Origin: Spizellomyces punctatus DAOM BR117 | Lineage: Eukaryota | Assembly: GCA_000182565.2 (NCBI GenBank) | Contig: KQ257452.1 | Reading direction: 5' to 3' (one strand) | Length of the DNA stretch: 64,000 nucleotides | In this document: positions 780 to 47,600 of the stretch, one piece after another | How positions within the stretch are numbered: position 1 is the stretch's first letter | Layout of the letters: the number at the start of each line of letters is the position of its first letter | The notes under the pieces: model-generated | What the model saw: only the letters and a program-made list of their open reading frames with translations | The model's database searches: none | What the model was told of the DNA's origin: nothing | Position numbers and translations under genes: made by a program

Positions 780-1751
780 TCAGAGCTTTGATGGCCTCTG
801 CTTTGACCACGAAGGCTTGGTTTTCTTTAAAAATGCAGACATTCCATCCCGCGCCTCCTCCGACTGAAGCATCTTTGTAAAGACTTCCTTTACATGTGGG
901 ATCGCATCTTCATGTGCGGGCGATTCAGAAACCAATCGCACGAGGTGTTTGACATTCGTCAGTGCTCCAGGAGCTCCTTCGATCAGCAAATCAGAGTACT
1001 TTCTCGTACATGTATCCAAAGCCACCTCGTCATCCACTACTTCGGATAAGGCACCAATGCGAAGGCATTCCTTGGCGGTCACCTTCTCTCCTGTCAACAT
1101 GTACTGACGGGTTCGAAATGGACCCAGCTGGGGCGTAATATACAGCGATATTATGGCAGGGACAAGTCCTCTCCGCACTTCAGGGAACGAGATATACGCG
1201 GATGCGACAGAGACTCGGATATCGCAGCAAAACAATACACCGACCCCGCCGCCCAGGCAAGGACCGTTGACGCGAGCAATGACCGGCTTGGGTGAATTTG
1301 CTATTGACTCAAAAAACCTGTAGCCGGCCTCCACCTGCGGACTCGAAGACCTTCCGTTTTGCGCTGTTGACGAGCCCCCCAAGTCCATTCCTGTACAAAA
1401 GTACTTGCCTGATAGTGTTTCGTCGATTACGGTTGTGTCACGATATTATGATACTCGCTGAATGAGACTTACATACCAGTGCCGGTCAGAACAATAACCC
1501 TGACGACAGGATCTTCATTCGCACGTGCAAAGGCGTCTGGTATTTCCTTTGACATTGTACTCGATATGGCATTCGCTCGTTCAGGATAGTTGAGCTACAC
1601 CGTTGAATGAATGGCGACATTTAGCAAATAAAGTCCCCTAGATATGCAGACAATTGCAAGATGTTGCGGCACATGAGACTCAGACGCTCACCGTGATCGT
1701 AGCCACACCATCATTGACAGAGTACAGGATTTGTTGATATGGAGCGGACAT
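780..1751 (-). CDS. Crotonase-family enoyl-CoA hydratase of the LiuC/AtuE (methylglutaconyl/isohexenylglutaconyl-CoA hydratase) type with C-terminal PTS1 (SKL); spliced
   Basis: ATG at 1751 (MSAPYQQILYSVNDGVATIT). Motifs YFCTGMDL, KPVIARVNGPCLGGGVG, FPEVRRGLVPAIIS and SEEARDGMSAF; ends PSKL-stop. GGGVG (no first catalytic Glu) is the bacterial LiuC/AtuE pattern, not the AUH pattern GGGLE. Confidence 0.9.
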
Positions 1752-1821
1752 GGCGGATATTGTCCTTTGGGAGGTCGCATCAACCACATCTAGTGGCCTG
1801 CTGCGCACAGGAACAGGTCTC

Positions 1822-1839
1822 TGAGTCATAATGAGTCAT
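1822..1839. promoter_or_regulatory. Two AP-1/Gcn4-type sites in a 172-bp bidirectional promoter
   Basis: TGAGTCA at 1822-1828 and ATGAGTCAT at 1831-1839, between the divergent ATGs at 1751 (-) and 1924 (+). Confidence 0.5.
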
Positions 1840-1923
1840 GACGGTGTGCTCTTACGAGGGTTCTGCTGGCTCCTTTTGTCCTTGTGCTTCTCTCTGGCCT
1901 TTACGGTCTGTCCTTATCCAGCC

Positions 1924-4900
1924 ATGTCCAACCCAGCTGTCCGTCTGGCATCTATTGCCCTTCACCTACAGTCAACCGGAGCCAGTCGCTCTGGTGGAGC
2001 CGGTCATTCGTTCGAAGTTAGCCCGCGACCAGAGGTATATTCGATACGCTAGGTATTCTCAATATGTTCAGGAATGGCTTATTCTCTTTGGTCTTTCAGC
2101 TGAACCAGCCGATGGCAGATATCCTACGCGAGAGAAAAAATGCCTCGTTTGATGTGAATCTCATGCAGACATATTTAAACGGAGGGAAGGAATACACCCA
2201 GGCAAAGGTACGGTGCTAACTTGGATCAACGTAAAGTTACAAGGAGGAAAATGCAACAAGAGTAGTTAGACTACTTTCTATATACCATGATGCACTCTCT
2301 TTCATGGACGTTTATAAAGCTATCTGTCTTTCATAGGAAATCGCGTATCAGATCATCCGACGCGATCCAATTCTCTTGTTCGATGGAGGAAACGACTACG
2401 ATCTTACGCGACCGGAAGCGCGAGAGAAAAGTATGGCACAAGTCCGCCGGTTTGTGGAAATATACCATAGCCTGAAGAACCCCATTCAACAGAAGGCATT
2501 TGAGGTCGTTCTATCGTACGTGTCCACGTCCGTATGGGGTAACCAGACCTTTCCGATAACCTAACATCCGACTTGTGCAAAGGTCCTACTCAGAGTCCTT
2601 TGGAATGCGTCTCTATGTGCATCATATGCTATTCAGAAACTCTATCAAGATGTTTGCGAGTGAGGAGCAAAAGAAAAAGACGACATGGGTGAAAGATATC
2701 GACGACTTTAGCGTGCTGGGGTGCTTTGCCATGGTAAGTGGAAAGCACAGCATAGCCTCCATGTCGTGAACCTCAAAATCTCAAACATTTCTCCTTGTCA
2801 AAGACGGAGCTCGGTCATAGGTATCCGAGCCCAATTTTTGTTGGATCGCCAGTACCCACTTCTAATATGTACCAACTGGTGTTTGAAGCTCGTCCCTTCG
2901 AGATCTGGAAGCCACTGCGACTTTTGATCACGCTACAGATTCGTTCATTCTCCACAGCCCGACATTAACCAGCACGAAATGGTGGATCGGGATGTCTGGC
3001 CAGGCTGCTACACATACGGTATTCCTAGCCCAAACGATCGTCAAAGGCAAAAACTGTGGTCTCAACTGGTTTATGGTCCCTCTTCGCGATCGGCATACTG
3101 GGAGGTTGTTTCCCGGAGTAACCTGCGGAGATATTGGAGCGAAAGCAGGGCGACATGGACTTGACAACGGATGGATCCAGTTGACGCAAGTGCGAATCCC
3201 AAGAGAAAACATGCTGATGCGCTGGTCGCAGGTTAGTTACCTATAACTCAAGTTATTTGTAGTAGGTGTATTCGTTAATTAAACAAACCTGCATAATGGC
3301 AGATCGATCGTGAAGGGAATATAAGCGAACCTCCAAACCAGGCTCTTGTGTACGTCTATCCTTCGGTCGCTCTGTATCTGTACATGCTGACATAGAAACT
3401 TCTAGATATGCCACACTTATCGCAGAGCGTCTCTGTACAGTTGATGGGACAAATAATCTCTGTGGACAAGCCCTGACAATTGCCACGAGATATAGTTGTG
3501 CACGACGCCAGGGAACTAGCAACCAGCAGATTATGGACTATCAAACACATTATGTCAATTTGATGCCCGGAGTTGCCGGAATGTATGTCTTGTCGCTGGT
3601 GGATCGGTATGTAACTCGCTCTCCCAGCTCCCGCATTGTTTTTGGCTTCTGACCTTTTTCCTATGGTCACCAGTTGTCTCTGGGCGTACTGGGATCGCAT
3701 GGAGGAACTGTCTCGTACAAACACCGAGGAATATTTGTACGTTATTTTTTCAGTCCAACATTCACATCGTACACATTAACGACGCGAGTGCTTATAGGCA
3801 GTACCTAAATGACATCCATTGCGTCGCCGCGGGTGCAAAAGCTTCCATTACTTGGTGGGGTTCTGAAATACTCGAACGATGCCGAAGAGCGATGGGTGGA
3901 CATGGGTTTAGCGCGTACAGTGGGATTCCGTCTATTATCGGCGACTGGGGAGTATTTACAACAGGCGGCGGGGACAACTTTCCTCTGGCGCAACAAACCG
4001 CGGTATATAGCCTCTTCTGTATCACAGACGTAGAGACTGCTCATTGACTTTGATTCATTCAGCGATATGTGCTTAATTGCGTCAACAGATCAATGCAAGG
4101 AAAGCCCAACTTTGGAAGTGCCGAGTACCTCAAGGATATCAAGGCCATCCTCGAGTTTAATGTGTGCCCAGCCGATTCATCCGCCGCGTGGTTGGATTTG
4201 CCTTTACTGCAAAGACTCTTTGCGTCTTTGACCGTCAAGCTGGTACGTCTTTAGGCAAGTGAGATGTGGAAGCATTTTTTCAAACTAATGTGATGGCATT
4301 ATCTAGGCTATGAGAATTGGACAGCGCTTGGCACCGGTTGCTAAGAAGGGCCAAGATAAAGTCGAAGCTGTGTGGAACGAGCATCAGCTTGACGTTCTGC
4401 GCCTCAGGTGAGATTACGATGCGACCTCTTAATTAGGACTGCTTCCGAATGATTATATTGGCTGATGATTTTTGTCTCTGCGCCGAACGCCAGCCACCTC
4501 CACACCATCCACTACCTGCTTTCCCTCTTCACATCCAGCGTCAGCTCGCTTGGATCCGAATACACTAGCTTGAAACCCATCTTGACAAAAGTCGGGCTTA
4601 CATGGGCGTTGGACATGGCTGTCCGTGACCTGGATTTGATGTTGGAGGAAGGGTTTGTTACCGCTGCCCAAGCACAGAATTTGAGAGTGGCGAGAAATGG
4701 AATCTGCAAGGAGCTGAGAAACGATGTTATTCCCTTAATGGATGGTACCGTTGTTCAGCCATTTCTAATGCCATTGTAGTATCTAAGAATTATGACTAAT
4801 TTCCCGCTTTTCTGGTCATATCTATGTAGCATTTGGAAGACCGGATTTCCTCTTGAAGAGCCCCTTGGGACGGTACGATGGAGATATTTACAACGGTAAT

Positions 4901-5071
4901 GCCTTTGTTTCACGCTTCTCCATTGTTGACCGCGACAGTTCCCTCTGTATTTACTATTAATGGTTTTCTGCAGCCTACTTTGACACTGTTACTAGAGCTC
5001 CCAACTGCTATGGCCCTGCCAATTACTGGAGTACGGAAGTGGAACCGCTCCTTACACGGGTCCGACCTTGA
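1924..5071 (+). CDS. Acyl-CoA oxidase family protein with N-terminal PTS2; multi-exon
   Basis: MSNPAVRLASIALHL contains the PTS2 pattern RLx5HL. Motifs GCFAMTELGHSS (spliced through a 17-nt micro-exon at about 2804-2820), TKWWIG, GVTCGDIGAKAGRHGLDNG, IPRENML, TIATRYSCARRQ, CRRAMGGHGFS and SPLGRYDGDIY; stop TGA at 5069-5071. Confidence 0.9.
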
Positions 5072-5341
5072 TGTCTATTATAGAGATGACTTTTGGGGGG
5101 AAATTTTGTAAACAAGGGATAAGAAGGACTGCTAATCCTAAATACTTGTAAAATGGTAAATGTCTATGCCAGCAACCATTGGGTATTCCCTACAATTGCA
5201 TATTTGAAAAGCTGTGAAGTTGTACAGTGATCGCCGTTGACGCGACACGACGACGCGACACGTACGTTGTAGTTTGTGATAGTACTGAGGACTCTGGAGA
5301 CCACAGACATCACAATTTCGAACTGTCCTTTTCCACACACA

Positions 5342-7806
5342 ATGTCCGTCGCTCAGGCGCCACCTTCCAACGGACATCAATATCGTCGGATAAAGTCCAA
5401 GGTCGATACGTCCCGCCCAGAATACACGGCCAATCATGCCGAAATGTCAGGGCTGGTGCAAGAGCTCCGCGAAAGGTTACGGGAGGCTACGGGACAGGGA
5501 CGAAAAAAAGTGATACAACGGCATTTGGAGAGAGGGCAGTTGCTGGGTATGTAGATATGTTCTAGACTGTCAATACTGGCCGTACGTGATGAAATGAGGA
5601 CTCCCCAACGTCCGCGACCGTTTGACTTGGAAAACTAAAGGAACCAACTCCCCCTTTTGCTTTTGCAGCTCGCGACCGTATTGAACTCTTGATAGATGAA
5701 GACTCTCCATTCCTCGAGTTGATGCCATTGGCAGGCTGGGGACAGGAAGATATGACCATTGGCGGCTCTACAGTTGCAGGCATAGGCCTCGTTTGGTGGG
5801 GACACAATCATACGTTTCGCTCTTGTTTTAAGCCCTTGAATAAGACTTGGAGTACTCCAAAACAGCGGTGTGGAAACTCTTATAGCTGCAAATATACCTA
5901 CCATTGCAGGCGGTGCAACCAATGAAGCGGGCGTGAAGAAGGCACTAAGGCTTCATGAAATTCAGATGGAGAATCGGCTGCCTGGGATCTGGCTCACGCA
6001 ATCGGTATGATTGTGCTCTAGTCAGCTGCAGGCGCATACATTATCCCTAATACCAAAGCGGTGTGAAGGCTGGTGCAAATCTAGGGCAGCAATCCCAAGT
6101 ATTTCATGCAGGAGGTGGAAATTTCCGAAATTTGGCCATTCGGTGCGTACTGCGATCACGTCTCAGGCCTGTACCAGTCCTGTCTTACACTTATTCTTGG
6201 CGTATCTCAGGTCTAAAGCCAACATCCCAACCTGCTGCGTTGTTTTCGGTAGCTCTACTGCCGGCGGTGCGTACACCCCGGGAATGTCAGATTATGTTAT
6301 TATGGTCAAGGTACTGTCTCGCACCTCACCTTGGTCGCATACACGTGTACGCTCACTGCTGATATTTTGTACTGTTCAGAATCAAGCCCAAGTCTTTCTG
6401 GGTGGGCCTCCACTCGTCAAGATGGCCACTGGTGAAGTCGTTGATGCTGAGTCTTTGGGTGGCGCGGAAATGCACAGCATAAAGTCTGGTAGGAGCCAGC
6501 TCCGTAACGGTTGAAAAACGTGCGCAGAATTCTGATTGCCGTCCCATATCAAAATAATACGCAGGCCTCTCTGATCAATTGGCCGACGATGAGCTGCATG
6601 CCATTCGCATGGCACGTGAGTGGGTCGAAGGCCTCAACTGGGAAAAGGCCGGTTCACTTCCTATGACACACATCACGGGCCGTTTTGAGGAGCCGGTTTA
6701 TGAATCTGGTAAGTCTTGCAAGTCGCAGCGCCAGCTCAATTCGATGTTGCTCACGAAGAGGCTACTGTGTGTCCATTAGAGGAACTTTTAGGAATAGTAC
6801 AAGCAAACATCCGTCTCCCGTTCGAATGCCGCGAGGTTATTGCGCGAATTGTTGATGGTAGTCGGTTCAGCGAGTTCAAACCGCTATACGGAAACAACCT
6901 TGTTACCGGGTTCGCCCATGTATACGGTTAGCTGATGATCGAATGCCCTATTACAGATACCGGTGGAAACTAGACATTTTCTCTCTATGAAGGAATTCCA
7001 ATCGGTATTATTTCGAATAACAGCGTCATCTTTCCAGAGGAAGCAAATAAAGCCACTCAATTCATACAACTGTGCAATCAACGGTAGGGTGCACTGTAGT
7101 GTTGTATTCGATTGCAAACTGCAGTCCATTGATGGCTGGCCGTAAATATCTAGATCAACACCCATCCTCTTCCTTCAAAACATCACTGGATTCATGGTCG
7201 GACGCGTATACGAGGAAGCAGGGATCATCAAGGCGGGTGCCCGATTCATTAATGCGGTATCAAATAGCTGCGTACCACACATAACTATCAACATGGGCGC
7301 AAGCTATGGGGCCGGGAACTACGCTATGTGTGGACGAGCATACCGGCCAAGGTAGGTTAATGTGTCCGAGGATGTAATATGTGCAATGACAGCATCTTAC
7401 GCTGACATTCTTTTATGGACAGATTTTTATTTTCTTACCCAAACAGCAAGTGTTCTGTTATGGGACCCGAGCAACTAACGGGTGTCATGGACATTATTGC
7501 TCGTGAAGCGGCTGCTCGGTAAGTCAGTTGCACACTTGTGGTCACAAGTAAGAGGTTACTAACCAGTACTTCACTCTCTATCGTAGAGCGAATCGCAAGG
7601 TGGATGAAGAAGCCCTTGCAGCACGTCTGGAGGTTTTTAGGTCCGCCGTTGCTGAGGAACAGGATGTGTACTTTACGTCATCCCGACTGTTAGATGATAG
7701 TATCATTGACCCAAGGGACACCCGGGACATTCTGGGCATTTGTCTCAGTGTTATTTATGGGGCTGAAGTGAAAGGCGGGAACTTGTATGGCGTTGCTAGG
7801 ATGTGA
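5342..7806 (+). CDS. Acyl-CoA carboxylase carboxyltransferase (beta) subunit, AtuC/AccD2-like branch of the MCC-beta family; ends in PTS1-like ARM
   Basis: Motifs [79 protein letters not shown] and [16 protein letters not shown]-terminus YGVARM. No obvious mitochondrial presequence. Confidence 0.88.
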
Positions 7807-8074
7807 GAGTAGACCTCTAAAGCTGGCTGCAGTTGACGGACTCATTGAGTGGTGGACAGTCATGCAGCTTCAACTAGCTAGTTAGAGAACAATCAATGGA
7901 GAAGAACTCGAGTTCAGTACATACGTTCATGACGACGAGACAAAAATAAATATTTCACTTCCAGGTATGCAACAGGAGAAAACTGCGAAGGGGGCAAGGT
8001 GATTTTTGCTTTGTACATACAAATATGCATTACATAAATGCAACTTGAAAAAAAGGACCAGGTGAAAGCGTCTA

Positions 8075-8157
8075 TGGGTGCTGTGAGATTCGAACTCACG
8101 CCTCCGGAGAGACTACGACCTGAACGTAGCGCCTTAGACCAACTCGGCCAAACACCC
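8075..8157 (-). tRNA. tRNA-Leu, anticodon CAG, intronless
   Basis: Reverse complement GGGTGTTTGGCCGAGTTGGTCTAAGGCGCTACGTTCAGGTCGTAGTCTCTCCGGAGGCGTGAGTTCGAATCTCACAGCACCCA: acceptor stem GGGTGTT/AGCACCC, anticodon stem CTACG/CGTAG with loop TT-CAG-GT, long variable arm, GTTCGAAT T-loop, discriminator A, and a downstream T-run (8048-8054) fitting a Pol III terminator. Confidence 0.95.
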
Positions 8158-8653
8158 ATGCTGAATTAAGTCTTCTCTAAAACTTGTATATTGTCATGCG
8201 GCGTTTGCCCGCTCAACTATACATTGACAAGTGTCTCCCATTATCCCCGTATTGATGACATTGTACCCTAATCGACACAACATTGTTTCTGGTAAGACCT
8301 GGAGAGTGTCCCTCAAGAATATCTCGAAATAGTTACCGCAAACGAAGCCCAGGCTCAAAAGTATGTCCTCCGGTTAGGTATGGGAGGCGTTTAGTAATGT
8401 ACTGGGAGATGATGACAAAGGATTCCATGCCTGAAAACGTAGACGCTTGCGTATCCTCACGAGGATATGTTACTCCAAATAATTTTAACGCCGAGATAGC
8501 TAGATGATGGTTAGGATCATGTATATTTTTGGTTATTTCGGCTTGGAGTAGAGACGAGGGCTGTATTTCAATAAAAGGATGCGCGAGCTGCCTTTAACTT
8601 CTTTGCACACGTTAGAGATTTTGCTCGCTTAAGGAACTTTGTTGAAATAAAAT

Positions 8654-30061: not shown

Positions 30062-33000
30062 TCATTCTACCACCTTGCCCTTGCCTTTTGCATCTTCCTC
30101 ATAGCCAAACGGGTGCTGTGGCAGAGTTCCTGGTTCGTACTCTTGTGTTGGCCACTCGTTGGGCTGTTGTCGTTGAAGGGGGATACCATCGCCCTCTGCA
30201 TTTCCATCCGTACCGGCACTTTTCGAAGCAGCTGAAGGTTCAGGATGAGAAAATAGTGATGGCGTCGATAGCATAGACTCCACAGGTGGTGCACTGGTAT
30301 TTTGCCCAGCCTGCCCACCCGTCTCCGCCTCGTCTGCAACTTTTTCATCCATTTCAGCAACACCAACTCCCATTTCTTTGTTCTTCTCGGCCATTTCAAT
30401 TAAGCCAGGAAGCTCTTTCTCTTTCTCTCCGACAACCAATCGGGGAATGCTAACGTGGTAAACCCCAATGCCAATGTGCTGGCGATGCTTTGGAGGCTCG
30501 AAACGAAGTCGAAACACTGCAAGCTCTGGAGTTGCGATTTTCTCGTCTACCACTGGATCACCGCTTTCCTGGCGTGTAATCCAGGAGGCAGGGACCACCT
30601 CATCGATCTCGCACCAGTTACGCCGAGCCATAATTTTACGGTGTCCCTTTTTGTTAGGATGGCCATCAACGTCGTGCTGGAAAATATGCACAAGTCCTTC
30701 GGTCGTATTTGGTACATTCAGCACCGGTTTACGAGAAGACGACCATTGGAACAATTTCAACACAATCTTTGGTGGTGGAATATTCCCAATAGCGGAGGAT
30801 ACAATGTTGTACATTAATCTGTCAAGGAAGAGCAACGTCAGGATGTGCATACAAAGTGATACTCGTAGGGGCTGCTGACCTTGGATCCTGCAGCGGTGGA
30901 ATTTCGTATACATGCTTCGTGTCCCGTTTTAAATTCGCTTGAGTCCTAAACTGGGCGATGGCAGCACAGTGTACATCGCCGGCAATGATGGTAACACGAA
31001 TAGANNNNNNNNNNNNNNNNNNNNNNNNNNNNNNNNNNNNNNNNNNNNNNNNNNNNNNNNNNNNNNNNNNNNNNNNNNNNNNNNNNNNNNNNNNNNNNNN
31101 NNNNNNNNNNNNNNNNNNNNNNNNNNNNNNNNNNNNNNNNNNNNNNNNNNNNNNNNNNNNNNNNNNNNNNNNNNNNNNNNNNNNNNNNNNNNNNNNNNNN
31201 NNNNNNNNNNNNNNNNNNNNNNNNNNNNNNNNNNNNNNNNNNNNNNNNNNNNNNNNNNNNNNNNNNNNNNNNNNNNNNNNNNNNNNNNNNNNNNNNNNNN
31301 NNNNNNNNNNNNNNNNNNNNNNNNNNNNNNNNNNNNNNNNNNNNNNNNNNNNNNNNNNNNNNNNNNNNNNNNAATCTTGCTGAACAGCTCCATAACCTTT
31401 TCGGTGACACCGAGTACAGGAAACGAGACAGGAACACCGGCAGCAAAAATCAAATGTTCCACTGTTGGGGGCAACGAAGGCAAGTACTCCTCAAATAGCA
31501 TATCCCAAGTTTTAGGATCGCAAACGCGAGTTTTTTTACGTTCAAAGCGACCGTCACTGCCAAAGATGGCTGTCCGTGGACCCATAAGCCGAAGGAAATT
31601 GTAGCCAGTAGATCCTCCCCATAGCCCTTCATCTCGAGCTCGCAGCGTGGTGGTATGGTGTTGGAACAGAAGGTAGAACCGGAGAGCAATCTTCCCAATA
31701 GCTTGAAAGACAGGACACTGTTGTAATGGATCAGGGTAAGCTACAAAACAATAAGTGGAACGGGTCAAAAAAACTGAGAGCACAATTGCAGCAATCGCAA
31801 GACTGGTCTTACATCCAAATCCGCTACAATCAGACAAGAACAAGATTCAATCAGATGTCAACAGTTTGCATCGTCATGCCAAAGAAACAAAAAGCTCTTG
31901 CTTACTCAAAAATATCATGATCATCCACAATGTTAATGCTGGGGATCGCGGCCATGGCATCCCCCACCACCGGCTGCGAGAAGTGAGCGAGATAGTGCAT
32001 CAAGTAATATCTAAACGTCTGTTTAGATCACAAAGCCAAAGACGAATGATTAATCGCGATTAGTACCGTTCAACTTCAATTTGCATCTCCACGGTGAACT
32101 GGTAGGATTCACGTTCAACGCTATTAGTAATATCCAGCCATTGGCGAAGACTTTGGCAATGGAAAAAGAAATCGTCTTGATATATCTGGTTTGAATGAGA
32201 TGAACATATCAATCAGAGATGTGTGAAGGTGTCTACGATGCGTCTCTTGATATCGCAATTACCTGATCCCCACATCCAACCATTAAATGTAGCGGTCGTT
32301 TCTTATGAACCGCCAACTTATCCCGCCAAAGGGGTCGCACGCCATCGAACTTTTCCTCCGGATTCTTCGTGTCCGTTCCAAATCCGTTGCAAGAGTAGAA
32401 TGCCCAATGCCAAGGTTCGTCTCTGGCAGCTACATAAAACTCGTAGGCTGTGCCGCCAGATATTGTTGAATCTACTCCTTCCGTTGTACCGTTTCCCTGT
32501 GAGCTCGACGCCTCTTGCGGGTCAACCGTGTAGGTAACTTTTTGACTTCGGCCAGAGCTAACACGTGGCTCCCCAGTTTCTATACCTTGCTGCTTCAAGT
32601 GCCGTGCTTGTGGATCACCTACTTCTGTGGCATCAAGAAGGGGCTCTGAAGGTGCGTTTTCAAGCGATATTTGCAAATCGTAGCGGACAGCAGAGTAACC
32701 TGTTCCGCTAATGTCTTCATCGAGGATGACGGGATCTACCCATCGTCCGCCGTCTAGTTTGGAATGAACATGAATGCGAGGAGGAGTACGGGACATGTGA
32801 TGCACGTATAGAATATTTCCAAGCCACACGTTCTTGTCCAAATCAACGTTGTGAAAGTTCAGGAATGGTCCATATAAGGGCTTGAGGGGTGCAGGCGGTG
32901 GAACTTTCTTCTTGTGATCCGTTCCCTCAGATACGTCTTTATCTTTGTTGCTTGCATTTTTCTGGCCGCTGTTTTGTTCGGGGTGAGCGAGCTGGTCGAG

Positions 33001-36135: not shown

Positions 36136-38645
36136 GGTTAGATCAATGAACGTTCAACCTGCAGCTTGCCGCGTCGGGGAGGGAACAAGTGGGGGAGGAG
36201 ATAAAGGACGGGGGAGTGGGGCAAGTCGGCTGGTTCTCTTTTAAAAGAAAAAAAGCCTTGGGTCAAAACCAGCAGCGGGCTGAACATTTCTGGTGGGCTC
36301 AGGAACGCGGAGTGTTCCTTTTTGGAAAGATCTTTTGGATATTTAGAATATTTTATTCGTGGTTTGCCAATATTAGGTAATTAAAGAACATGTGGCGGTA
36401 CAAATTTCCGCGAGGCTAAGCACTTTGTCTCCCATCTCACAGCGCCTCCGTGACTCTGCCACTGCGGTTGTGGGGCGAAGGAAGAAAGGCACGGGAGCAC
36501 AGCCACAAAGGAAACAGGACGGAGAGAGGAGGTGTTCTATAAAGGATTGGGCGTTGTTTGTCCATGGCTGATTTCCATGGCTGCTGCACAGTTTCCCTTC
36601 TTCCGCCCCTCTCAAGGCCATGCTGCAAATTGATGGGGCGATTCCCCTTACAAAAGAACATTCAACGGATCTCTGCGCGAGGGTACCCGAACGCATTCCA
36701 GGCGTTGGAGTAGAGAGCATTGTTTTGCGGGGTGAAAAGGCCATCGTACTCGAGACCATACGCGCTTTAGATGAGCGTTTCAATCGTGAAACGTTGAGGG
36801 AGTAGCGCAATGTTTGTCCACAATGGTTACGGAGGATGATGGTTGCTGTGATCGACGCATGCCGTACACTGTGACAAGGGCCACACATTCCATTTATTTT
36901 TCCTCCACATTACAATCGTCCTTAGTTGCACGGTTGCGCCGTTCCTACCAACCGGGTTTTTGATTACCTCAAGCATGGCAAGGGAAACACCGCGTTGTTC
37001 ATAGTAGCTGTCAAGATGGTAGGGTGATGGATTTGTTCATACAGCGTAGCATGTCTTATCTGAAGAACAACGGTGGGATCTACCACTTCTACCGTGTTAA
37101 TCTTTTATGCCACACTGCAACTGAGATTTGAACCATCAATTAACGTGACTGAACACATGTAGACAGTGACCGCGCCCATTTAATTGAATTCATGCATTGG
37201 AACCTACATATTGGGTTACTCCAGCGTGTAGGAGTGGTAGCGCGTCGCAGTCAGTCAGTGCGTAAGTCCAAGGCATAAGAAGGCCGCATAGACACGTTTA
37301 CACAGTCTTCCGCACATTACAGAGTTGGCGTTGCCTCTGCCCATGGCATCCTTTTGCGCTACCTCCGCGGATGCTCAGCTTTATAGTGCAAAATGATCAT
37401 GAGGTATGGCAAGGCATATGAGCCAATGACCAGTGTAAAAACCCAAAGTTGCCGATCACACATTACAAGTTTGCAACCATCCCTGGGCATCGCCGAGTTG
37501 TGTGGCCACAGGTGATTTTATTCAATAGGCAGTCCATTAACCCAAAAATGTAAGGCGGAAATGAAACGCGGGATAATTGCTTCCGGAATTTTGCCGGCAC
37601 ATGGTTTGCCACACGTCATTTAAGCTTTGGCTTTTGGTACTGGTAAATTATTTGAGACCAGTTTCCGGTTTGCTTGGAACAAGATGGGGTTGACATGCGA
37701 ATTGGGAATATTAGTTCCGGTTAACAATAGCACAGGGTGTGGTTGGTTATCACATTTTAAAGCTTTGTAGCGTCAGAATGAAATGATTTGACTCATTGAA
37801 TATGATCTGAATATGGGTATCAATGAAATGAAAGAAGCCAGATTAACAATATGCTGCATGAGATTGTTGCTGGCCATCGCATGCTGTGTACTGTTCCCCG
37901 GGGGACAATACAATACTCCACTGTTGTATAATGCATCTTTGATCAAGAAACTCGAGAAAGAGAACTGCATGCAGAAATTGAACATGGCAAGGGGCATTGA
38001 GGAAAAACAGATCTTGGAGTACCGATCCTACTTCTATCGTGGAGCCAAAAGCTATGGAGCTAGTGTCAAAAAGAGCAAGCGGCGGTGAAAAAGATCCGAG
38101 GGAACACAGCCCGGGCAGACCCGCATGAGTGTTGCAGTATCACATGTGCGAGTGATATCCAGACGATACACACAAACTACCCACTAGTGTTTTTCACATG
38201 TGCTTTACAGACAACATCTCATTTCCAGAATGACCCTGTAACTCAGCCAACGACTCAATGGAAAAAAGGAGGGTCAGGAGCGTGTGCACTGAAAAACCCA
38301 GGGTTGTATTCACCCAAACAGCCTAAAAATAGTATAGTTGCGAAAAAATCATTAACCTAAACCTGTGTTCCGATTGATAAAATTCCCCCACGTAAGCGTA
38401 TGGAATTTCTGTGTCCGGGGCTATCGTAATTCATGGCAAGATTGTGGAAGAGTTTTTGTTTGTTTGGTGAAGTTACTGATTTGTATGATTGCCACAATGC
38501 ATCAAAGCCCGTTCAACAAGCACAACGTACCCGTATGGTCGCTCGGGCATTTATATGGGTGCTTAAAAGGGCAGATAGGCACGAAATATAATCGCCATTT
38601 CTCTCGGCTTCACCCATAGAGTCCCCAAACACAAAATCCTCCGAT

Positions 38646-41600
38646 ATGACTGTTTCAAGTAAAGTATCGTCACCCTTAGAGACGTCAGTGGCCCATCTTC
38701 AACGTCAAGCCAAACATCGCCCAGATGAGCCTCTCTTTGTATTCCATGATGACAATTGTAATGTCATTGAGAAGCTCACCAGCAAGGAGGTCTACCGATG
38801 CGCACTCTCCATTGCTGCTGACCTGCGAAATGTTCTCGCACCCGGTGATCGCGCCGTCCTTTTATATCCACCTGGCACATCCTTCATCACTGCGTTTTTC
38901 GGATGCTTAATTGCCGGTATCGTTGCGATTCCAATGCCTCCAATTAACTTTACCGATACCCGTGACGAACAGCAATGGGATCATTTAGCAAAAGTAAGCA
39001 AAGCTTAGGAGTATTTTCTTCATGCATTGGAGCTCACGCTTTCTTCTTTTGATCCGTACAGGTGATTGAGACATCTGGAAGCAAAGTTATACTAACGGAT
39101 ACCATGTACTACAGGCTATCGACAGCCTACCAGATGAAAATTATGGTCAGCACACTTTCATTTCGGTCGAAATGGCCAAAGATCCCGTGGTAGGTGGTTT
39201 GGGATAATTATATGACTATGCCATCCGCGCGTTCTATACAAATCACGTGACAACTGATCCTTCCGTTGTCCAAAGGCGAACCACCGACACTGTCGCCGTC
39301 CAAGACAATATCAGTGAAGCAATCATTGTGCCTTCGACTCTGGACGACACTGCCTTTCTCCAGTTTACCTCTGGATCCACTTCCGCACCTAAAGGTACGC
39401 GGCGGCTATATATATATATATATGACTAGCCTAACTAATTTTGATCATGTTCCTTACAGGTGTCATTATGACCTACAGAAATGTCGGACATCAACTGGAC
39501 GTCTCTCGGGACACTTTGCTAACCCTTCCAGGCGGGAGCTATGTCTCATGGATCCCCCATTGGCATGACTTTGGTCTAATCGGAGCCATCCTGTGCACCG
39601 TGCACAACGACTCTACATATTACTTTACGTCACCATTGACGTTTATGCGAAAACCAAGTTCTTGGATTGAACTCATGTCGAGATACCGGGCGACACACAC
39701 CGCGGCCCCGACCTTTGCGTTTGATCTGGTGGTCAGGAAAACGCAGCCCGAAGAACGACTGGCGTGGGATCTGTCTGCGTTGAAGGTTATCAATATTTCG
39801 GCAGAACCAATTTCTTTTGACGTACTGCGAGGCTTTGCAGATGCTTTTGAAGCATCCGGGTTGAGACCTGGCTGTTTGGCTCCATGCTACGGATTGGCCG
39901 AGCACACAACGGGTATTACAGTATATGGTTCGTCTGTGTTGTGTGTGGACAAGCAGACACTAGAAGAAAGCAGTCAAGTAGAGGTGCGGCACTATAGCAA
40001 GGATGGATTGCACAAATGCCGGACCATACCTCTCGCTGGAGATAAGCAGGTGAAAGTCTTTGTTTCATCTGGTAAGCCGTACCGCGGTGTGACTGTTGCC
40101 ATTGTTGACCCGGTAGGTTGCTGATTGGCTTTGTGAGAGTATGGGAAAGTCGCTGTACTGTTTTCATGCACCGGACTGATGGTCAACTTTTGGTTTGCTA
40201 AAGATCTCGCGCTATCGCTGCCCACCACTGACCGTTGGGGAAATCTGGGTGGATAGTTGGTCAAAGGCGCCCGGTTATGACGGTCTGGCGGACGTCTCAA
40301 CAGAAACCATGGAGGCACGAATTGCTGATGACCCAGCAGATGCCACGCCATACCTTCGCACGGGTGACCTCGGTTTCTTTTATGACGGAGAATTGTACAT
40401 ATGCGGTAGAATTAAAGATATGATAGTTATTAATGGTGGGTTACCTGACTCGCACATACATATGGTCCGCGCCATTTTGTCTCTCAAGTATGTATTTCAC
40501 TTACAAACTGATCATTGCCGTGGTAAATATAGGTCACAACATTTATCCACAGGATATCGAGGACAAGTTGCGGAACAACGTCCATTCTGCTATCCGGCCC
40601 GGAGGTAGTAAGGAAAATCTATTCTTGTTTTTATGAACAGGACTGAAAACTGAGCCCATTTTGCATAGGCCTCGCTTCTTTTGCTGTGGAAGGTTCCAAG
40701 TTTGGAGAAGAAGGTCTCGTTGTATTTGTCGAAATCAAAAAGGAAGCAAATGACGGCGGCAAGAAAGGATCGGGTGCCGCGTCTTCTGATGCTTTGGGTC
40801 GAGACGTTGCCAAAGCAGTCCAGCGCGCTGTTGCGCGCGAGTTTGGCGTGCGTTGCTATGCGGTGGTCGTTGGCCTTCCCGGTCTTGTGCTCAAGACCAC
40901 AAGTGGAAAGGTTCGACGCCAAGCTTGTAAAAAAGAATTTGGCACTGGCGCAATTCACAAACTGAAAGCCACAATTTTGGTTGAGCGGTTTGGAAAATCT
41001 GACGAAAACAGCGAGAGACCACTTGTCTCTGAAGTCAGCGACTCATTAAACATTCCTGACCTTGTTCAAAGCCTCGACGCCCCGTTTCAATCCATTATAG
41101 GAGAATTGTCGACAATGTTTGGAGGCATGACGAAGCAATCGCATGACCGAGTCTTCCACCGTCGTGCAACAACATTATTGGGAACATGTCAAGTATTGGC
41201 CGATACCGATATTCCGGCCAACGACTTTCTTAAACCTGGGGCAGAGTATTCAGTATTGGTCCGTCATGCAAATGGGGTAGCTGATGATGACGCTGCAACC
41301 GATAATCGCGGAGCAACTGTTCGGCTCTTTGACGCAAAGCACAATGATATGAATCTGCCCAGCTTGGACTTACTGCTGACAACTGGAGAGTGCTTTGTTA
41401 ACGGAACTGCGGAGGATTTCCGTAACTGGATGCTAGCCTCCCTACCTGAAAAGGAACGCATTGCATCCGATAACCCGCTTGTCAGTGATGCGGCCTGGGC
41501 TGCATTCAGAGAAGGAATTGGATCGTATACTGATTATCATTACTACTCGAAGACATCAAGCATACTGACTGATGTCGATGGGGAAAAGCATATTGTTCAG

Positions 41601-44600
41601 TTCCGACTGGTAGGGGATGAGAAGAATGTCAATGGTAAGGTTATTTGTTCGAGTCTCGTACTCAGAACCATAGTACTCAGTTCGTGTTAACTCGTTTGCC
41701 ACTTAGCTGATCCCGGGAGGCTTAACCCAACAAGCATCCTTCCGCCAAATCGTCCGGCTATCCGTCAGCCAAACGACACCCGTCCCGCTGACTATCTTCA
41801 CGCCGAACTGCGAACTCGTCTCACATGGGGACCTATAACGTACTCTCTTCAAATTCGTGTCCATCCCTACTCGCGTGCCGCACCTTTAAACGCTCGGGCA
41901 TTGGATGCAACAATTCCATGGCCCAAACATCTTCAATGGCAGACAGTTGGCCGATTTACCTTGGACAGAATAGTCGATGACGAGCAGGCAGTGACGAAGC
42001 TCGCATTTAATGTATTTCATGCCCCTGCAGTCATTCGTCCCCCATTGACACGCTCGTCTCGGGATCCTGCGTCCTTAGCCTTGACCAGAGCGATCGTATA
42101 TGATGTGGCGGCTCGAACAAGAAGAGGAGAAAAGATTCCAGAATCTATTGCTAAGCTGGCTGCTTCTCGTCCGGTTCATCAATCCCCGTCCAGGGCCGAG
42201 AAAAGTCAAGGAAAATTGGAAGCGGTAGAGAAATTAACCACATTTGAGGTATCTGTGAGCAAGTCTCCCTACAGCTCATCAATCTCTGCACCTTTGCCAT
42301 CGTTCCAGCGAACTACACCGCTTCGGGTCGCTGTTATCGGTGCTGGACCCTCCGGACTCGCCGCAGCGTACGCTTTGCACAAATTGGGCTACGCTGTAAC
42401 AGTATACGAAGCATCCGATCGCATTGGCGGCAAGGCTGGTACCGTGAACGTGAAGGGGCTAGATTTTGATCTTGGAGGACACGTATGCACTCAGAGGTAC
42501 ACCAAGACTTGGTCCTTGGTGCAAGAGCTTGGCCTCCCAACAGAAGAAGTTACCCCAGGCAAGATCCTGAATCCAAGCAACCAGACCTGGCGCACGATTT
42601 ACGAAGTAACTGAGAAGGAACGTACCCCAGCGTGGCTTCTGGAGGCTGCATCGTACATGAAGATTCAACGGCAATACTTCCCGGAACCTTTTCCGACTAG
42701 ATTGTCGGCAAATGCAAAGTTGACAAACCTCACCGCGCCTGCAGCCAATTTCCTGAATAGCAACGGTCTTCCAAATTATCGCAAGGACATTGAGATCTTT
42801 TACTCCGGATGCGGCTACGGCATGCTCGATGAGCCTGACCATCCAGCCGCACATCTGATCAAATACTCTGAACTTCTCGGACTGTATGATACTGTCGACA
42901 CTCCCAGGCAATGGACGGTGAAGGGAGGTATGGGGAAACTATTCGAAGCTATAGCTAGCAAGTTGCCAGATATACGGCTAGCTTCCAGAGTAAATTGGGT
43001 GCAGAGAAAGGACGGTCAGATCTCGGTGCAAGCTGAAGGTCAGGAGCCCGCTACTTTTGATCGGGTCATGGTCGGTGTCTCTCCAAAAGTCTTTGAGTCG
43101 ATCTGTGCAGACGTTACAGTGCAGGAACGTGAGCTATTCGAAAATGTGCGATATCGCAATTACTGGACAATTATCTTTACTGCCGATGGTTTACCAAAGA
43201 AGGGATTCTTCCTGTTGGAAAATAACCAAGTGCAACAAAAGGGTTTGTGTTTCCTTTTGGCATTTTTTATTAGCATACATTTCCAGTACACTAATACCTT
43301 ACTATCAGAGGGTCATGTCGTCGCATTGCACCACCGTTACGATGACTCGAACATTTATTGTGCATACTCATACGGCGCAGAGTCTCATTCCGCAAAGGAT
43401 ATAGTTGCGTTCCTTCATGAGGATGTTGCCGAAATGGGCGGAAAAATGATTGAGGTTCACGGAACGTATCAATGGGGTGACTACATGCCTCATTATGGGC
43501 CAAAAGAACTTCCTACGATGCAAAAGAAGTTGGAAGCATATCAGGGAACCAAAGGAACCTTTTTCCTCGGCGGGTTGTTGTCCTTTGAGTTAATCGAATG
43601 CAACGTTTCTTACGCGACTGGCTTGGTGGAACGCTTTTTTACTGGGTCCTTTGCAACAGCCCCCAAGGACGTACAGATAACAAGCACGTCCAGTGGTACA
43701 CCCTTGCAGAGCTTCCACTTAGAAAACAATGAAGAACGGAAGCGCCGATCAATGGTGGATTACATTCGATTGGTCCTGAAAGAAGAGTTGGGAGATGAAG
43801 CCGTTGCTGAGATCGGGGATGAGGATGAGTTCTCGACTTTGGGTCTAAACAGTATCGCTGCTACTCGTATGACCGATCGTATCTGCAAAGACACGCAGGT
43901 CACGATTGCCCCTGTGACGCTATTTGCCTTCCCGACCATCGTGGCGCTTGCGGACCATCTTGTTGAGCTACATGCTGATCAGAGCATCGCGAACGAGGTG
44001 CCCGTCCCACTATCTCACCCGGTGCCGCACAGTTTCCGTCAGATGCCAAGTTTAATGGTTGCTACGGCACAAATACCCGAGATTTCTGTGCCTGTAGACG
44101 TGAAAGACAGACCCTTGGACATATTGAAGAAGGTGTCGAGCGACCAGGAGCGTCGTCAGGCGCTCTGTACGTATTTGCAGACCATATTACGCGAAGAGCT
44201 CGGGAGCGATGCGCTGAATGGATTCGATCAAGAAACCGAATTTGCGTCGATCGGGATGAACAGTATTCAATTCTCGTCTTTATCGAGCAAATTATCGACC
44301 GACGTTGGTGTAAACCTCGCACCGGTCACCTTCTTTGCTTTCCCAACAGTAACAGCCCTGGTGGACCATCTGGCAGAAATCGTAGATGTTGGGACTCTTG
44401 ATAAGCCTGTTGCTTGCCACAATGTATCCTCTAGCCCAGTGACACCGCCGCCTAGATACACCTCAAACACATCACCCTCTCCAACAGTAGATTCAAGGAG
44501 CACAGGAGGCTCGTACATTCGTCACCGCAACCTGACACTAGAAACGTCTTGCCATACAGCCTGCTTGGTTGACGTCTTTGTCCCTGCTACGTGGACCAGA

Positions 44601-47600
44601 ACTGGCTTGCTCGTCGATGTCATCAGTCGCGGATGGAACTCAAACGTTGCAGAAGTTGATCGCAAGTTAGCCCTGTACGATCATCTTTGTCACAAGGGAT
44701 ACGTGGTTGTTGCGGTCCGTGTTGGTTCCGGCCCAGATGTCAACTTGGCTACGATGGTGGCGGGCATCAGGGCTGCAATTCAATGGACTACTACCACTTC
44801 TGCTCGGGTGGAGTTGATGGGTATCCGTAGTGACAACATTGAAACCGTGCTTATGGGCGAGCACACAGGAGGTTTTGTTGCCGCTTCTTCCATTGGCCGC
44901 TTAAGCGCCACAGAAATGGTCGATCGTGTACTTCTCGTCCAGGTATGGCAAGTTTCTGCAATTTTAAAGCTCCTGTAGTCCGCCTAACTTTTTTTGATGC
45001 CTCCAATTAGCCTACGGTTGACTTCCAAGTCCCTCCACAAAGTAGATCGGGCGTTGCATTCCCATATGAAACTTTATCGGCTGCCAGCCTTTTGGCTCTG
45101 GAAGTGCCCGAATTGGCCAATAAACCGGAAATCGCTCTCGTGGGTCATTCTGGAAGCTGGTCGCTGCCTATGAGAGACTTGTCTGAATATTCACGGAAAT
45201 TTGCTCGTCGTAATGTCATTGCCTTCTTTGGCGCTGTCGACAGCCAGATGTGTAGCTCGGAGAGTGCATTGGAATGGTTGACCGGTGTGTAACTGTACTG
45301 GAATAGACAATAAAGTTTTTTTGTACCTTGTGTACTTCGAATTAGCTTTATATTCATCTTTCCTATTCTCACTAGAAAAAGACCGAACGGTCACTACAAA
45401 AAGGCTGGCGAAGAAACAATCCACCCCAACTGCACACTCAACGGCCACTGTCCAAAGATTACCTGCAAGCGATAAATCACTCCTCACAGTAGACCACGCG
45501 GTCGCTACCAAAACACAACTTGTCCCTCCAAGAACACCTCCTCCGAAGAATTCACTAAAACGGAGAGTTCCAGAATCAATTCAGGCATGCGATGGATGGT
45601 TCCTTATAACACCCAGTCAAGTATTGCCACCTAGTGTTCGCCTTCTAGTCCTTCACGATGCTGGGGGTAGTGCCGATCTCTATTCAAACTGGCCATCCCA
45701 GGTACCGCAGAGCTTGGAACTCGTTCGAATCGAGCTCCCAGGACATGGGCAACACCGTGGCGAACACTTCACCGACGGAAATGCACTTATCGGGGCATTG
45801 CTCAATGTCTTGGAACCAATGCTGGCCGATGGCATGCCATATGCCATTTTTGGACATTCTATGGGCGCAGCGCTCACCTTTGAGCTCACCAAAGCGATTT
45901 ATGAGCGGAAATGGGCTAGCCCCTTGATGATCTTCCTTTCTAGTTACCCGGCATTCAACGGTACCGATTATAAAATGGCGATAGAGCACAAAGCCGATAG
46001 ATCGGTTCTGTTTTCTTTGGCGGCTACTAGAACAGATGTATGTCTCCCTATCCCTGTATGTGCAATGGGAGGTGAGGAGGAAGCGATGAAGGGACTTTTG
46101 CCCTGTCTCTCAGCGTGGCGAAAACGAACGACTGCGGCCGGCTACCGAGGATTTTCTGTGAAACTATTCCCTGGAAACCACTTTTACGTCGCCGGTGCGG
46201 CTAGAGACGCTGTGGCTGAATATGTTTTCAAGCGGGTTTTCGATGCATTGGAAATGCGTGACCGATCAGCGGTTCCTCCCGAACGATATTTCCGAATGAA
46301 TGACCAGCCTGCGGAGATGCAGAATGACATAAACCCGTCCGTGCAAGCTTTGGCTCAGTCCTGGCGACGAAACCCGGCATCTATTACGTCCACTCAGGCT
46401 TTCTATTCGTTAGCGTGCATTGCCCGGCTTCTTGACGATGAAACCGGCAGACCCATCTTTGCAAACGGTTTGGAAGTTGTTTTGGGGATGCTAAACGAGG
46501 ATGGATACGGCTTCATCCAACCACAGCCGCTTGCGGTGGCTAACTGTGCAGCAGCCCTGGCTGTTGCAAACACATTGATGCTTCTCAACAGAGATGAGGA
46601 GCATAACGCAGGCTTCGATCATATGGACCGTCTGGTAAACTATGTGTTTGACGAATTGGCCAAAGTGAGGAGCGCAAAGAGATTGAAAAAGAGCGATTTA
46701 CCTTGTAAGTTCTCAGTAGATGATGCTGACGGTGCGTTTGACACCATGCTAATGAAAACTTGACACAGACGGAAAATACTTCGAGTTTTCCGACTTCTTG
46801 GCGATAAACCATACCTTTTATCACGAAGGTGCCTTATTTCTCAAACTGGCTTCCGATTCTTTGTGCCCCCAGGACAAGCGTCGTGAACTGGAAGTTTCCC
46901 TCAAGTCGGTAGCGTACGTTAGGATGGCATACGGGAAAGGAGTTGACTTGAAATCCTTATTTGACACGAATCACACTTTATTGTGGTTTGCGCATTGTGA
47001 GTTGTCATTGCAGGTGCTACGTTATGTTGTCAGCGCTACAAGAGCTGACTCTTTTTTTGTTGGGTAGACTTCAAAGACGGTACCTTGTCTAGTTCCGCTG
47101 CTCGGTCTCATGCGGCTGCCCGTAAAGTTGTCGGCTGGAACGTTGCTTCCACAGTGAAATTCTATGAAGAGACCAAAGACTCAAATGCTCTGCAAACGCT
47201 TCGCACGATGATGAAAAGGCCACGTATGTACTCTTCTGGGGTTAATGTAATAGTCGTTTTTGCGTCTGTTCTAACTCCCACAATTAGATGACGGCCTGCA
47301 TCCGGATATGTACCTTATGGAAACCCTGTTCATTTTCTATTATCTCCGCCGCGGCGGTGTCGACCTCCTCGCAGCAGGGTTTGAAGATGAACTGCGCTAC
47401 CTTGCGTCCTGTCTGGAACCAGACGGCGTTGGTATCTTTGAAGATCTGGGTCTCAAAGACGTGGATGTGTCCGCATTGGCCATATACCTGTTGCAGAATA
47501 CTCACATTCCTTCCCGTATGCGGGTTACCGGTTTGGAAGCATTTTGGAACGAGCGATATGGATTTTACGAAAATTTCGAAAGATCGGACTTTTTCGTGAC

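Follow-up and report, generated by a model that had tools for sequence, protein, structure and literature searches.

A three-gene locus of Spizellomyces punctatus with predicted peroxisomal signals and a putative Atu-like route past the 3-methyl branch

The hydratase, oxidase, and carboxyltransferase genes

We analyzed a 64,000-nucleotide stretch of contig KQ257452.1 from the chytrid Spizellomyces punctatus DAOM BR117 (hereafter the window). Three adjacent genes near its start encode an enoyl-CoA hydratase of the crotonase type, an acyl-CoA oxidase (ACOX), and the carboxyltransferase (CT, or beta) subunit of a biotin-dependent acyl-CoA carboxylase (Table 1). Each protein carries a predicted peroxisomal targeting signal (PTS) motif, and the enzyme types follow one another in the Atu pathway of Pseudomonas, in which the 3-methyl branch of isoprenoid acyl-CoAs is carboxylated and removed. 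An Atu-like, peroxisomal interpretation of the trio, first proposed in a sequence-only reading of this stretch, is supported by comparison of the three proteins and of their gene neighborhoods with those of other organisms.

Gene models were assembled by hand from six-frame translations and GT..AG introns. They coincide exactly with the sequence-only reading in the positions of the three genes, in the two spacers of 172 and 270 bp, and in every signal motif. The oxidase gene has 14 introns, all GT..AG and 56–129 nt long. Its protein has the N-terminus MSNPAVRLASIALHL and the C-terminus TRVRP, and is as long as the NCBI model from Spizellomyces sp. 'palustris' (P0032), to which it is 95% identical; the oxidase and CT are 95–99% identical to the proteins of that species. 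Intron 3 of the CT gene (6005–6068) was set by orthologue alignment, which also ruled out an alternative acceptor at position 6058 that shifts the frame. The 208-aa last exon of the hydratase is 100% identical to SPPG_01693 of S. punctatus DAOM BR117, a protein that is also 268 aa long.

All three genes are expressed. Sense-strand 3′-end reads from one RNA run were found on each of them, with mean depths of 18.8, 74, and 25.5 in the 3′-end bins. The run was 3′-biased and left most introns and the oxidase exon-1 junction outside read cover, while reads confirmed the oxidase introns at 4745–4829 and 4896–4973 and placed poly(A) ends near 5175 and 5195, ~100–125 nt past the oxidase stop codon. 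The short region between the divergent hydratase and oxidase genes could provide for their common regulation. As a separate observation on the CT gene, one base is missing at 5467 and one at 6472 in a single low-depth DNA contig (run X6). Both bases are present in other covering runs (X2 at both positions, X1 at 6472), and the gaps in X6 are probably contig errors.

Genes for further steps of such a pathway were searched for in the window. A Pfam scan of 252 stop-to-stop frames of at least 75 aa found no biotin carboxylase, HMG-CoA-lyase-like (HMGL-like), AtuA, or acyl-CoA dehydrogenase (ACAD) domain beyond position 7900, and tblastn of the window with proteins of the same four kinds gave no match at E <= 1e-3. 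Because both searches were empty, we place the alpha subunit and the lyase outside the 64-kb window, where the sequence-only reading had also placed them.

Table 1. Coordinates of the trio and its spacers in the window, and of lyase–hydratase fusions in metagenome loci.
Feature	Position	Strand	Remarks
Enoyl-CoA hydratase/crotonase gene (268 aa)	780..1751	-	Exons 1751-1692, 1594-1477, 1408-780 (stop included)
Divergent intergenic region, hydratase ATG to oxidase ATG, 172 bp	1752..1923	.	From gene models
Acyl-CoA oxidase gene (15 exons, 706 aa)	1924..5071	+	Gene model, orthologues, Pfam, RNA
Oxidase exon 1: 37-aa N-terminal extension preceding the usual ACOX start, RLASIALHL at aa 7-15	1924..2034	+
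Spacer, oxidase stop to carboxyltransferase ATG, 270 bp	5072..5341	.	Oxidase 3′UTR and poly(A) sites inside
Acyl-CoA carboxylase carboxyltransferase (CT, beta) gene (12 exons, 549 aa), GCC/AccD2 type	5342..7806	+
HMGL-like–hydratase fusions	L090:8859-10771, L110:8752-10750, L131:8909-10750		Metagenome loci

Gene neighborhoods in bacteria and other fungi

The neighborhoods of CT homologues were surveyed in one genome per prokaryotic species, and the 80 best loci were retained. All of these were from Actinomycetota, with CT identities of 54–59% to the window CT. Their typical order is AtuA – ACAD – CT – biotin carboxylase alpha – ACAD – enoyl-CoA hydratase (ECH), with an acyl-CoA synthetase sometimes added. 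AtuA and alpha were each present in 78 of the 80 loci, each of two ACAD queries matched in 75, and the window hydratase had a homologue (33–38% identity) in 61. We take the Mycobacterium genes of these clusters to be those named accD2/accA2/fadE12/fadE13/echA7, and to our knowledge the substrate of the clusters has not been established.

Metagenomes were scanned with the hydratase family, which returned 80 loci, 22 of them with a hydratase end resembling a type 1 signal (PTS1). Every PTS1-like locus with long flanks on both sides carries another pathway gene (7/7; CT in four, alpha in four, and ACAD in six). Two short contigs carry CT with alpha (L108) and a divergent CT–ECH pair ~220 bp apart (L154). 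The CT–ECH neighborhood was seen in six intron-bearing metagenome contigs with varied gene orders, the pathway genes being broken by short introns. We take these contigs to be fungal, and probably from Dikarya, because they carry Fungal_trans and GH72 domains and because Alternaria has the closest hydratase among named organisms (52%).

Three contigs (L090, L110, and L131) each encode an acyl-CoA synthetase, CT, alpha, an in-frame fusion of an HMGL-like lyase with the hydratase, and an ACAD, in an order that differs among the three. A fungal Zn-cluster regulator is also present in L110 and L131. In the order L090, L110, and L131, the CTs end in ARI, ARM, and ARM, the fusions in AKL, SKL, and PKL, and the ACADs in SKL, SKL, and SRL. 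The CTs share the motif FHKGGQ, with the glycine and the missing insert described below. Their alpha subunits are short at the N-terminus, have ESMKME near the C-terminal end, and carry no PTS, with SVI, TVT, and TVT as their last residues. Since it is fused to an HMGL-like lyase, the hydratase is tied to the lyase step. Aspergillus nidulans AN5273, given in a table of PMC5371717 with both an ECH and an HMGL-like domain, is possibly the same fusion. AtuA was not found in the fungal contigs searched; the literature does show AtuA-family (DUF1446) annotations for certain fungi and plants.

Protein listings point to linkage in two further genomes. The CT and ECH proteins of Chytriomyces sp. MP71 are both listed with a longest contig of 61,325 bp, and the CT and ACOX proteins of S. 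palustris are both listed with a contig of 152,969 bp. The linkage, whose check by synteny the sequence-only reading suggested, is kept in other fungi, with an ACAD ending in SKL or SRL in place of the oxidase.

These neighborhoods bear on a first alternative, in which three unrelated genes lie side by side by chance and the hydratase is, for example, an auxiliary enzyme of the enoyl-CoA isomerase type. Isomerases do occur among crotonases that retain only the second catalytic Glu, as the window hydratase does, and linkage to an oxidase was seen in Spizellomyces only. A chance arrangement is opposed by the recurrence of CT beside the hydratase across the actinobacterial loci and the six metagenome contigs in varied orders, by the lyase fusion in three fungal contigs, and by the Chytriomyces proteins listed with a contig of the same size. 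Because the three genes are adjacent, all bear peroxisomal signals, and have homologues that are neighbors in bacteria and in other fungi, we regard the trio as exceeding chance and this alternative as highly improbable.

Active sites and predicted targeting signals

The type of the CT was examined through its tree, its substrate pocket, and its N-terminus. The tree comprised 59 rows, with clades labelled by best Protein Data Bank (PDB) match, N-terminal length, and neighboring genes. Clade A contains Pseudomonas-type geranyl-CoA carboxylase (GCC), including P0269, which matches the GCC beta chain 5ikl_B at 764 bits. [quoted passage not shown] Clade B (SH-aLRT 99) joins fungal proteins ending in [AS]R[MIL] with the CTs of actinobacterial AtuA clusters, and the window CT belongs here and not in clade A.

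Two pocket features distinguish GCC beta in the available part of Jurado et al. 2015 (PMC4673880): Gly162 in place of MCC Phe191, and the absence of a 3-residue insertion just before it, both of which set substrate size. The mutants reported there associate the Gly/no-insert state with use of geranyl-CoA and poor use of 3-methylcrotonyl-CoA. The window CT has Gly at the PfGCC Gly162 position (Phe191 in PaMCC beta), where it aligns with P0269 (...FIP-G-GKTF) and with the P. aeruginosa GCC beta chain 5ikl_B (...FVE-G-ARGF). It also lacks the insert, and the same gap is seen against human MCCC2. The insert is carried by 24 of the 25 MCC-clade rows and is absent from all of clade A and all of clade B but two long-branch rows; at the Gly162-equivalent position, many MCC-clade rows have F and some have G. 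The CT orthologue P0007 has the extended N-terminal helix region that is absent from the beta subunit of propionyl-CoA carboxylase (PCC), its alignments starting at residue 12–20 against residue 3–26 of MCC/GCC chains and at residue 39 against PCC beta chains. The conserved RGQLL is preceded by 63 residues in the window CT, 36–59 in bacteria, and 72–145 in mitochondrial-type or long-N MCC representatives. The window CT is thus predicted to be without an N-terminal presequence, with no room for one.

Based on the Gly and the missing insert, the window CT is of GCC/AccD2 type in its features, although the Pseudomonas GCC clade does not include it. The assignment of the beta subunit to the AtuC/AccD2 type in the sequence-only reading accordingly agrees with the tree, the pocket, and the nearest relatives, which lie in AtuA clusters. 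In the tree, the protein stands apart from the MCC clade (an affinity to which was marginally disfavored in the test given below) and from the Pseudomonas GCC clade. The large-pocket active site would favor acids above 3-methylcrotonyl-CoA in size, for example those of the citronellyl/geranyl type or longer isoprenoid ones.

A smaller substrate is the core of a second alternative, a peroxisomal leucine/isovalerate (Liu-like) route, in which the oxidase would convert isovaleryl-CoA to 3-methylcrotonyl-CoA and MCC, 3-methylglutaconyl-CoA hydratase, and HMG-CoA lyase would follow. Its reaction chemistry is identical to that of the Atu-like route. Several hydratase relatives bear the JGI/KEGG name methylglutaconyl-CoA hydratase (liuC), the hydratase fusions of other fungi involve an HMGL-like lyase, and the oxidase and cluster ACADs have a base of the type found in isovaleryl-CoA dehydrogenase (IVD), as described below. 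Against the PDB, P0007 matched human MCC beta at 511.5 bits, P. aeruginosa MCC beta at 485.6, Mycobacterium tuberculosis AccD1 at 464, and Pseudomonas GCC beta at 457.3; the scores are roughly equal and put it slightly nearer to MCC beta. Constraining the fungal proteins to group with the MCC clade cost 32.3 lnL units and was not rejected by the approximately unbiased (AU) test (p = 0.069, with groups named once the tree had been inspected). Wild-type GCC is also described as weakly active on 3-methylcrotonyl-CoA in the available part of PMC4673880. In the same source, the pocket marks carried by the window CT are tied to geranyl-CoA and to poor use of 3-methylcrotonyl-CoA. Moreover, the nearest prokaryotic CTs lie beside AtuA, a marker of Atu and not of Liu clusters, and mitochondrial-type MCC beta forms a separate clade. 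We consider a Liu-like route unlikely, although it deserves to be kept in view.

Two observations concern the CT family at large. P0273 (1153 aa) and P0278 (1100 aa) combine a biotin-carboxylase N-terminus (...ANRGEIA...) with an MCC-clade CT end and are single-chain alpha–beta fusions. At metagenome locus L098:4698-5968, a fungal-type CT reads FHKARQ at the substrate-pocket position, with Ala-Arg instead of the Gly-Gly of its relatives; its last exon was not recovered.

The hydratase matches Pfam ECH_1 (2.5e-49) and contains the motifs GGGVGVLFCCD and FPEVRRG. The first crotonase Glu is replaced by Gly (GGGVG) and the second is retained (FPEVRRG). Their aligned counterparts in the ECHs of actinobacterial AtuA clusters are AGG[LM]G and [ST]E[AV]R, which is consistent with the LiuC/AtuE type named in the sequence-only reading: an ECH_1 fold with the second Glu present and Gly in place of the first, as in Atu-type clusters. 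Its PDB neighbors are uncharacterised crotonases, with AtuE (4zu2) at 103.5 bits and SidH at 101 bits. A SidH-type mevalonyl-CoA hydratase of the siderophore pathway was considered and rejected, since the bit score is near that of AtuE but the gene context does not fit. Relatives of the hydratase come from chytrids, Mucoromycota, Mortierellomycota, Glomeromycota, Blastocladiomycota, one amoebozoan, and one green alga.

The oxidase has the domain architecture of an ACOX, with Acyl-CoA_ox_N, Acyl-CoA_dh_M, ACOX_C_alpha1, and ACOX found in this order on the 95%-identical P0032. Yarrowia ACOX1 (5y9d) matches at 339 bits, and the alignment confirms the active-site columns. The canonical Glu motif [WY]EG[DE]N is missing: the window oxidase reads TTGGGDN in the column of WEGDN of 5y9d. 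A Glu is found instead before a conserved Arg (LIAERL), ~138 aa upstream of the canonical site. Among 94 aligned oxidases, 80 without and 14 with the canonical Glu, Glu-Arg was present in 79 of the former, the exception being a mis-modelled stretch, and in none of the latter (0/14). This covariation suggests that the LIAER Glu may serve as the catalytic base.

The ACADs of the related clusters have the same arrangement. In the actinobacterial clusters, their motifs are ...SER.../...PER... and ...GIGGGT.../...IAPVS..., and in the fungal clusters ...HER... and ...VGGGSEE.... The window oxidase and both sets of dehydrogenases therefore share Glu-Arg on the helix-G equivalent and a Gly or small non-acidic residue at the canonical site. 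In hhalign, the Glu-Arg and GGG columns of the oxidase fall on those of the ACADs with 97% probability. [quoted passage not shown]

Oxidases with a relocated Glu form a clade of 51 of the 64 tree rows, with Gly or Ala at the canonical site and the covarying Glu-Arg. Its members (P0032–P0129 set) are spread over chytrids, Zoopagomycota, Mortierello-, Glomero-, and Mucoromycota, and Amoebozoa. The branch of the window oxidase is long (0.53) and is sister to that of 13 other chytrid members, in keeping with a diverged paralogue. We found no description of an ACOX with a relocated base in open-access papers and preprints (supplements aside). This large clade, whose putative catalytic Glu occupies a site known only from IVD and LCAD, could represent an undescribed group of oxidases.

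As the sequence-only reading had it, predicted peroxisomal signals are present in all three proteins. They are also kept across relatives. The hydratase ends in -SKL, within the accepted PTS1 set, and 70 of its 73 best relatives (P0152–P0224) end in [SAP][KR]L. The oxidase lacks a PTS1 and carries a predicted type 2 signal (PTS2), its RLASIALHL being a nonapeptide of the RLx5HL type (the prototype quoted in PMC3427985) within ~50 N-terminal residues. Orthologues retain the nonapeptide while its flanks diverge: it is identical in S. palustris and reads RLASVALHL in Borealophlyctis and RITAL[AT]AHL in Chytridium/Dinochytrium. Most other members of the oxidase clade have either a nonapeptide of the RLx5[HQ]L type or a PTS1-like end. 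The CT ends in GVARM, and all 13 eukaryote-type relatives found (P0006–P0018) end in [AS]R[MI], compared with FR[MLP] in the other 13 matches. ARM, SRM, SRI, and ARL are among the tripeptides that experiments have validated as PTS1 in plants (Table A1 of PMC3427985).

The CT signal is the least canonical of the three, and a third alternative would keep this subunit in the cytosol. Here, -ARM would be a mere family C-terminus, the oxidase and the hydratase would be peroxisomal auxiliaries of beta-oxidation, and adjacency would not imply one pathway or compartment. Bacterial family members also end in ...[FYLAS]R[MLF], the alpha subunits of the fungal clusters have no PTS, and ARM falls outside the S. 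cerevisiae-derived PTS1 consensus [A/S/C/P]-[K/R/H]-L quoted in the available part of PMC13343957. Yet the eukaryote-type ends are uniformly [AS]R[MI], against FR[ML] in the nearest bacterial relatives, and strong signals flank this step on both sides (ACAD-SKL or oxidase-PTS2 before it, and the lyase–hydratase with AKL, SKL, or PKL after it). CoA esters do not pass freely across the peroxisomal membrane, and piggy-back import of oligomers is established. We therefore judge a cytosolic CT to be quite improbable.

A putative peroxisomal route past the 3-methyl branch

We consider it probable, if by no means certain, that the trio performs successive reactions of an Atu-like ('Seubert-type') route in peroxisomes, past the 3-methyl branch in beta-oxidation. 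The PTS2-bearing oxidase, standing in for a dehydrogenase of the AtuD/IVD type, would introduce the double bond that turns a 3-methyl-branched acyl-CoA into the 3-methyl-2-enoyl-CoA, with O2 as electron acceptor. A biotin carboxylase holoenzyme, made of the -ARM CT as beta and an alpha subunit presumably encoded elsewhere in the genome, would then carboxylate the 3-methyl group, and the -SKL hydratase would add water to the resulting 3-(carboxymethyl)-2-enoyl-CoA. An HMG-CoA-lyase-like enzyme, also presumably encoded elsewhere, would release the branch as acetate and leave a 3-oxoacyl-CoA for normal beta-oxidation. Given that alpha lacks a targeting signal in the related fungal clusters, it probably enters the peroxisome bound to beta (piggy-back).

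Several findings weigh against this Atu-like route. The window does not hold a complete Atu/Liu-type cluster, as alpha, lyase, and AtuA are all without a gene in its 64 kb. The link to the oxidase was seen in Spizellomyces only, with an ACAD (-SKL/-SRL) at that step elsewhere. The relocated Glu is common to the whole 51-row oxidase clade, including paralogues without known CT or ECH linkage, and is therefore uninformative on the substrate of the window oxidase itself. The hydratase scored under every NCBIfam cut-off, with 139.2 bits against a cut-off of 426 for gamma-carboxygeranoyl-CoA hydratase (PRK05674). As noted with the Liu-like alternative, the CT orthologue P0007 scores a little higher against MCC beta than against Pseudomonas GCC beta in the PDB, and an MCC affinity was not rejected. 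Regarding the CT signal, -ARM is on the plant list and outside the yeast-derived consensus, and it is a putative signal in chytrids. An A or S at position −3 is found in bacterial GCC, too (GVARF and GVSRF), and with a family C-terminus that already reads ...xR[ML], only the −3 residue has changed.

Among known systems, Pseudomonas Atu (AtuD, AtuC/AtuF, AtuE, and AtuA) has the same order of reaction types as the trio. The CT of the trio has the GCC beta marks in common with that system (Gly162 position, no insert, and a long N-terminal helix region), and the hydratase of the trio has lost the first crotonase Glu like those of AtuA clusters. In contrast to Pseudomonas Atu, the trio is eukaryotic, intron-rich, and equipped with peroxisomal signals, has an H2O2-forming oxidase instead of a dehydrogenase, and is without AtuA in the window and in the fungal contigs searched. 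Its CT lies outside GCC clade A and scores lower to 5ikl_B than to MCC beta. The actinobacterial AtuA clusters are closer: their CTs are the nearest to the window CT over the full length and form its sister clade, a hydratase homologue is usually nearby, and their ACADs match the window oxidase in the Glu-Arg/Gly arrangement. They differ in being bacterial operons with CT ends of FRM, AtuA in nearly every locus, and a dehydrogenase for desaturation.

Mitochondrial leucine catabolism (IVD, MCCC1/MCCC2, AUH, and HMGCL) uses the same chemistry on the smallest substrate. Human MCCC2 gave the 511.5-bit match cited above, and an HMGL-like lyase is a partner in the clusters of other fungi as well. 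MCC beta differs from the window CT in Phe191, the 3-residue insert, a eukaryotic presequence (72–145 aa before RG, compared with 63), and its separate clade, and the mitochondrial pathway differs in compartment and in its dehydrogenase. Animal peroxisomal alpha-oxidation of phytanic acid meets the same 3-methyl-branch problem in the same organelle. It proceeds by hydroxylation and removal of C1, whereas the proposed route would use carboxylation, hydration, and loss of acetate, and the enzymes are unrelated.

A wider scenario can be drawn, which we put forward tentatively and hold to be slightly short of an even chance. Fungi from chytrids to probable Dikarya would possess a GCC-type biotin enzyme in the peroxisome, to which no biotin carboxylase would have been assigned before, with alpha carried in by the PTS1 of beta. 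This enzyme would support a 'beta-decarboxymethylation' alternative to alpha-oxidation for phytol, terpenoids, and 3-methyl-branched acids. The system would have a common ancestry with the AtuA clusters of Actinomycetota, with an ancient transfer as a possible cause, and in chytrids the dehydrogenase would have been replaced by an oxidase of the large undescribed ACOX clade with the IVD/LCAD-type Glu.

If correct, the proposal would have consequences beyond this locus. Biotin-dependent carboxylation would join the repertoire of the peroxisome, and eukaryotes would own a second way, beside alpha-oxidation, past the 3-methyl branch of isoprenoid-derived fatty acids. With its very large size, the alpha/beta holoenzyme would allow piggy-back import to be tested in a natural case, and the chytrid locus would be a clean natural experiment on how an oxidase takes over from a dehydrogenase inside one pathway. 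The literature searched as above gave no description of a peroxisomal MCC/GCC-type carboxylase, nor of the conserved fungal catabolic cluster comprising synthetase, ACAD-SKL, alpha, beta-ARM, lyase–hydratase fusion, and Zn-cluster regulator, and it yielded no paper on an isovaleryl-CoA oxidase. In the available part of the Histoplasma peroxisome proteome, MCC is named solely as an endogenous biotinylated control.

The remainder of the window (beyond 7.9 kb) encodes an EamA transporter, eIF3a, an alcohol dehydrogenase, a choline-transporter-like gene, PhoD-like pieces, and a polysaccharide deacetylase. A tRNA-Leu gene (anticodon CAG) lies at 8074–8158 on the minus strand, 268 bp downstream of the CT stop. 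An assembly gap of 368 N at ~31000–31400 falls within frames with PhoD-like matches. A gene or gene pair resembling a non-ribosomal peptide synthetase (NRPS) occupies 38592–46760 on the plus strand, with AMP-binding pieces followed by a 1095-aa frame and then a thioesterase domain. The 1095-aa frame matches a flavin amine-oxidase and two carrier-protein (PP-binding) domains. The NRPS-like gene is >30 kb from the trio and, judged by this distance, unrelated to it.

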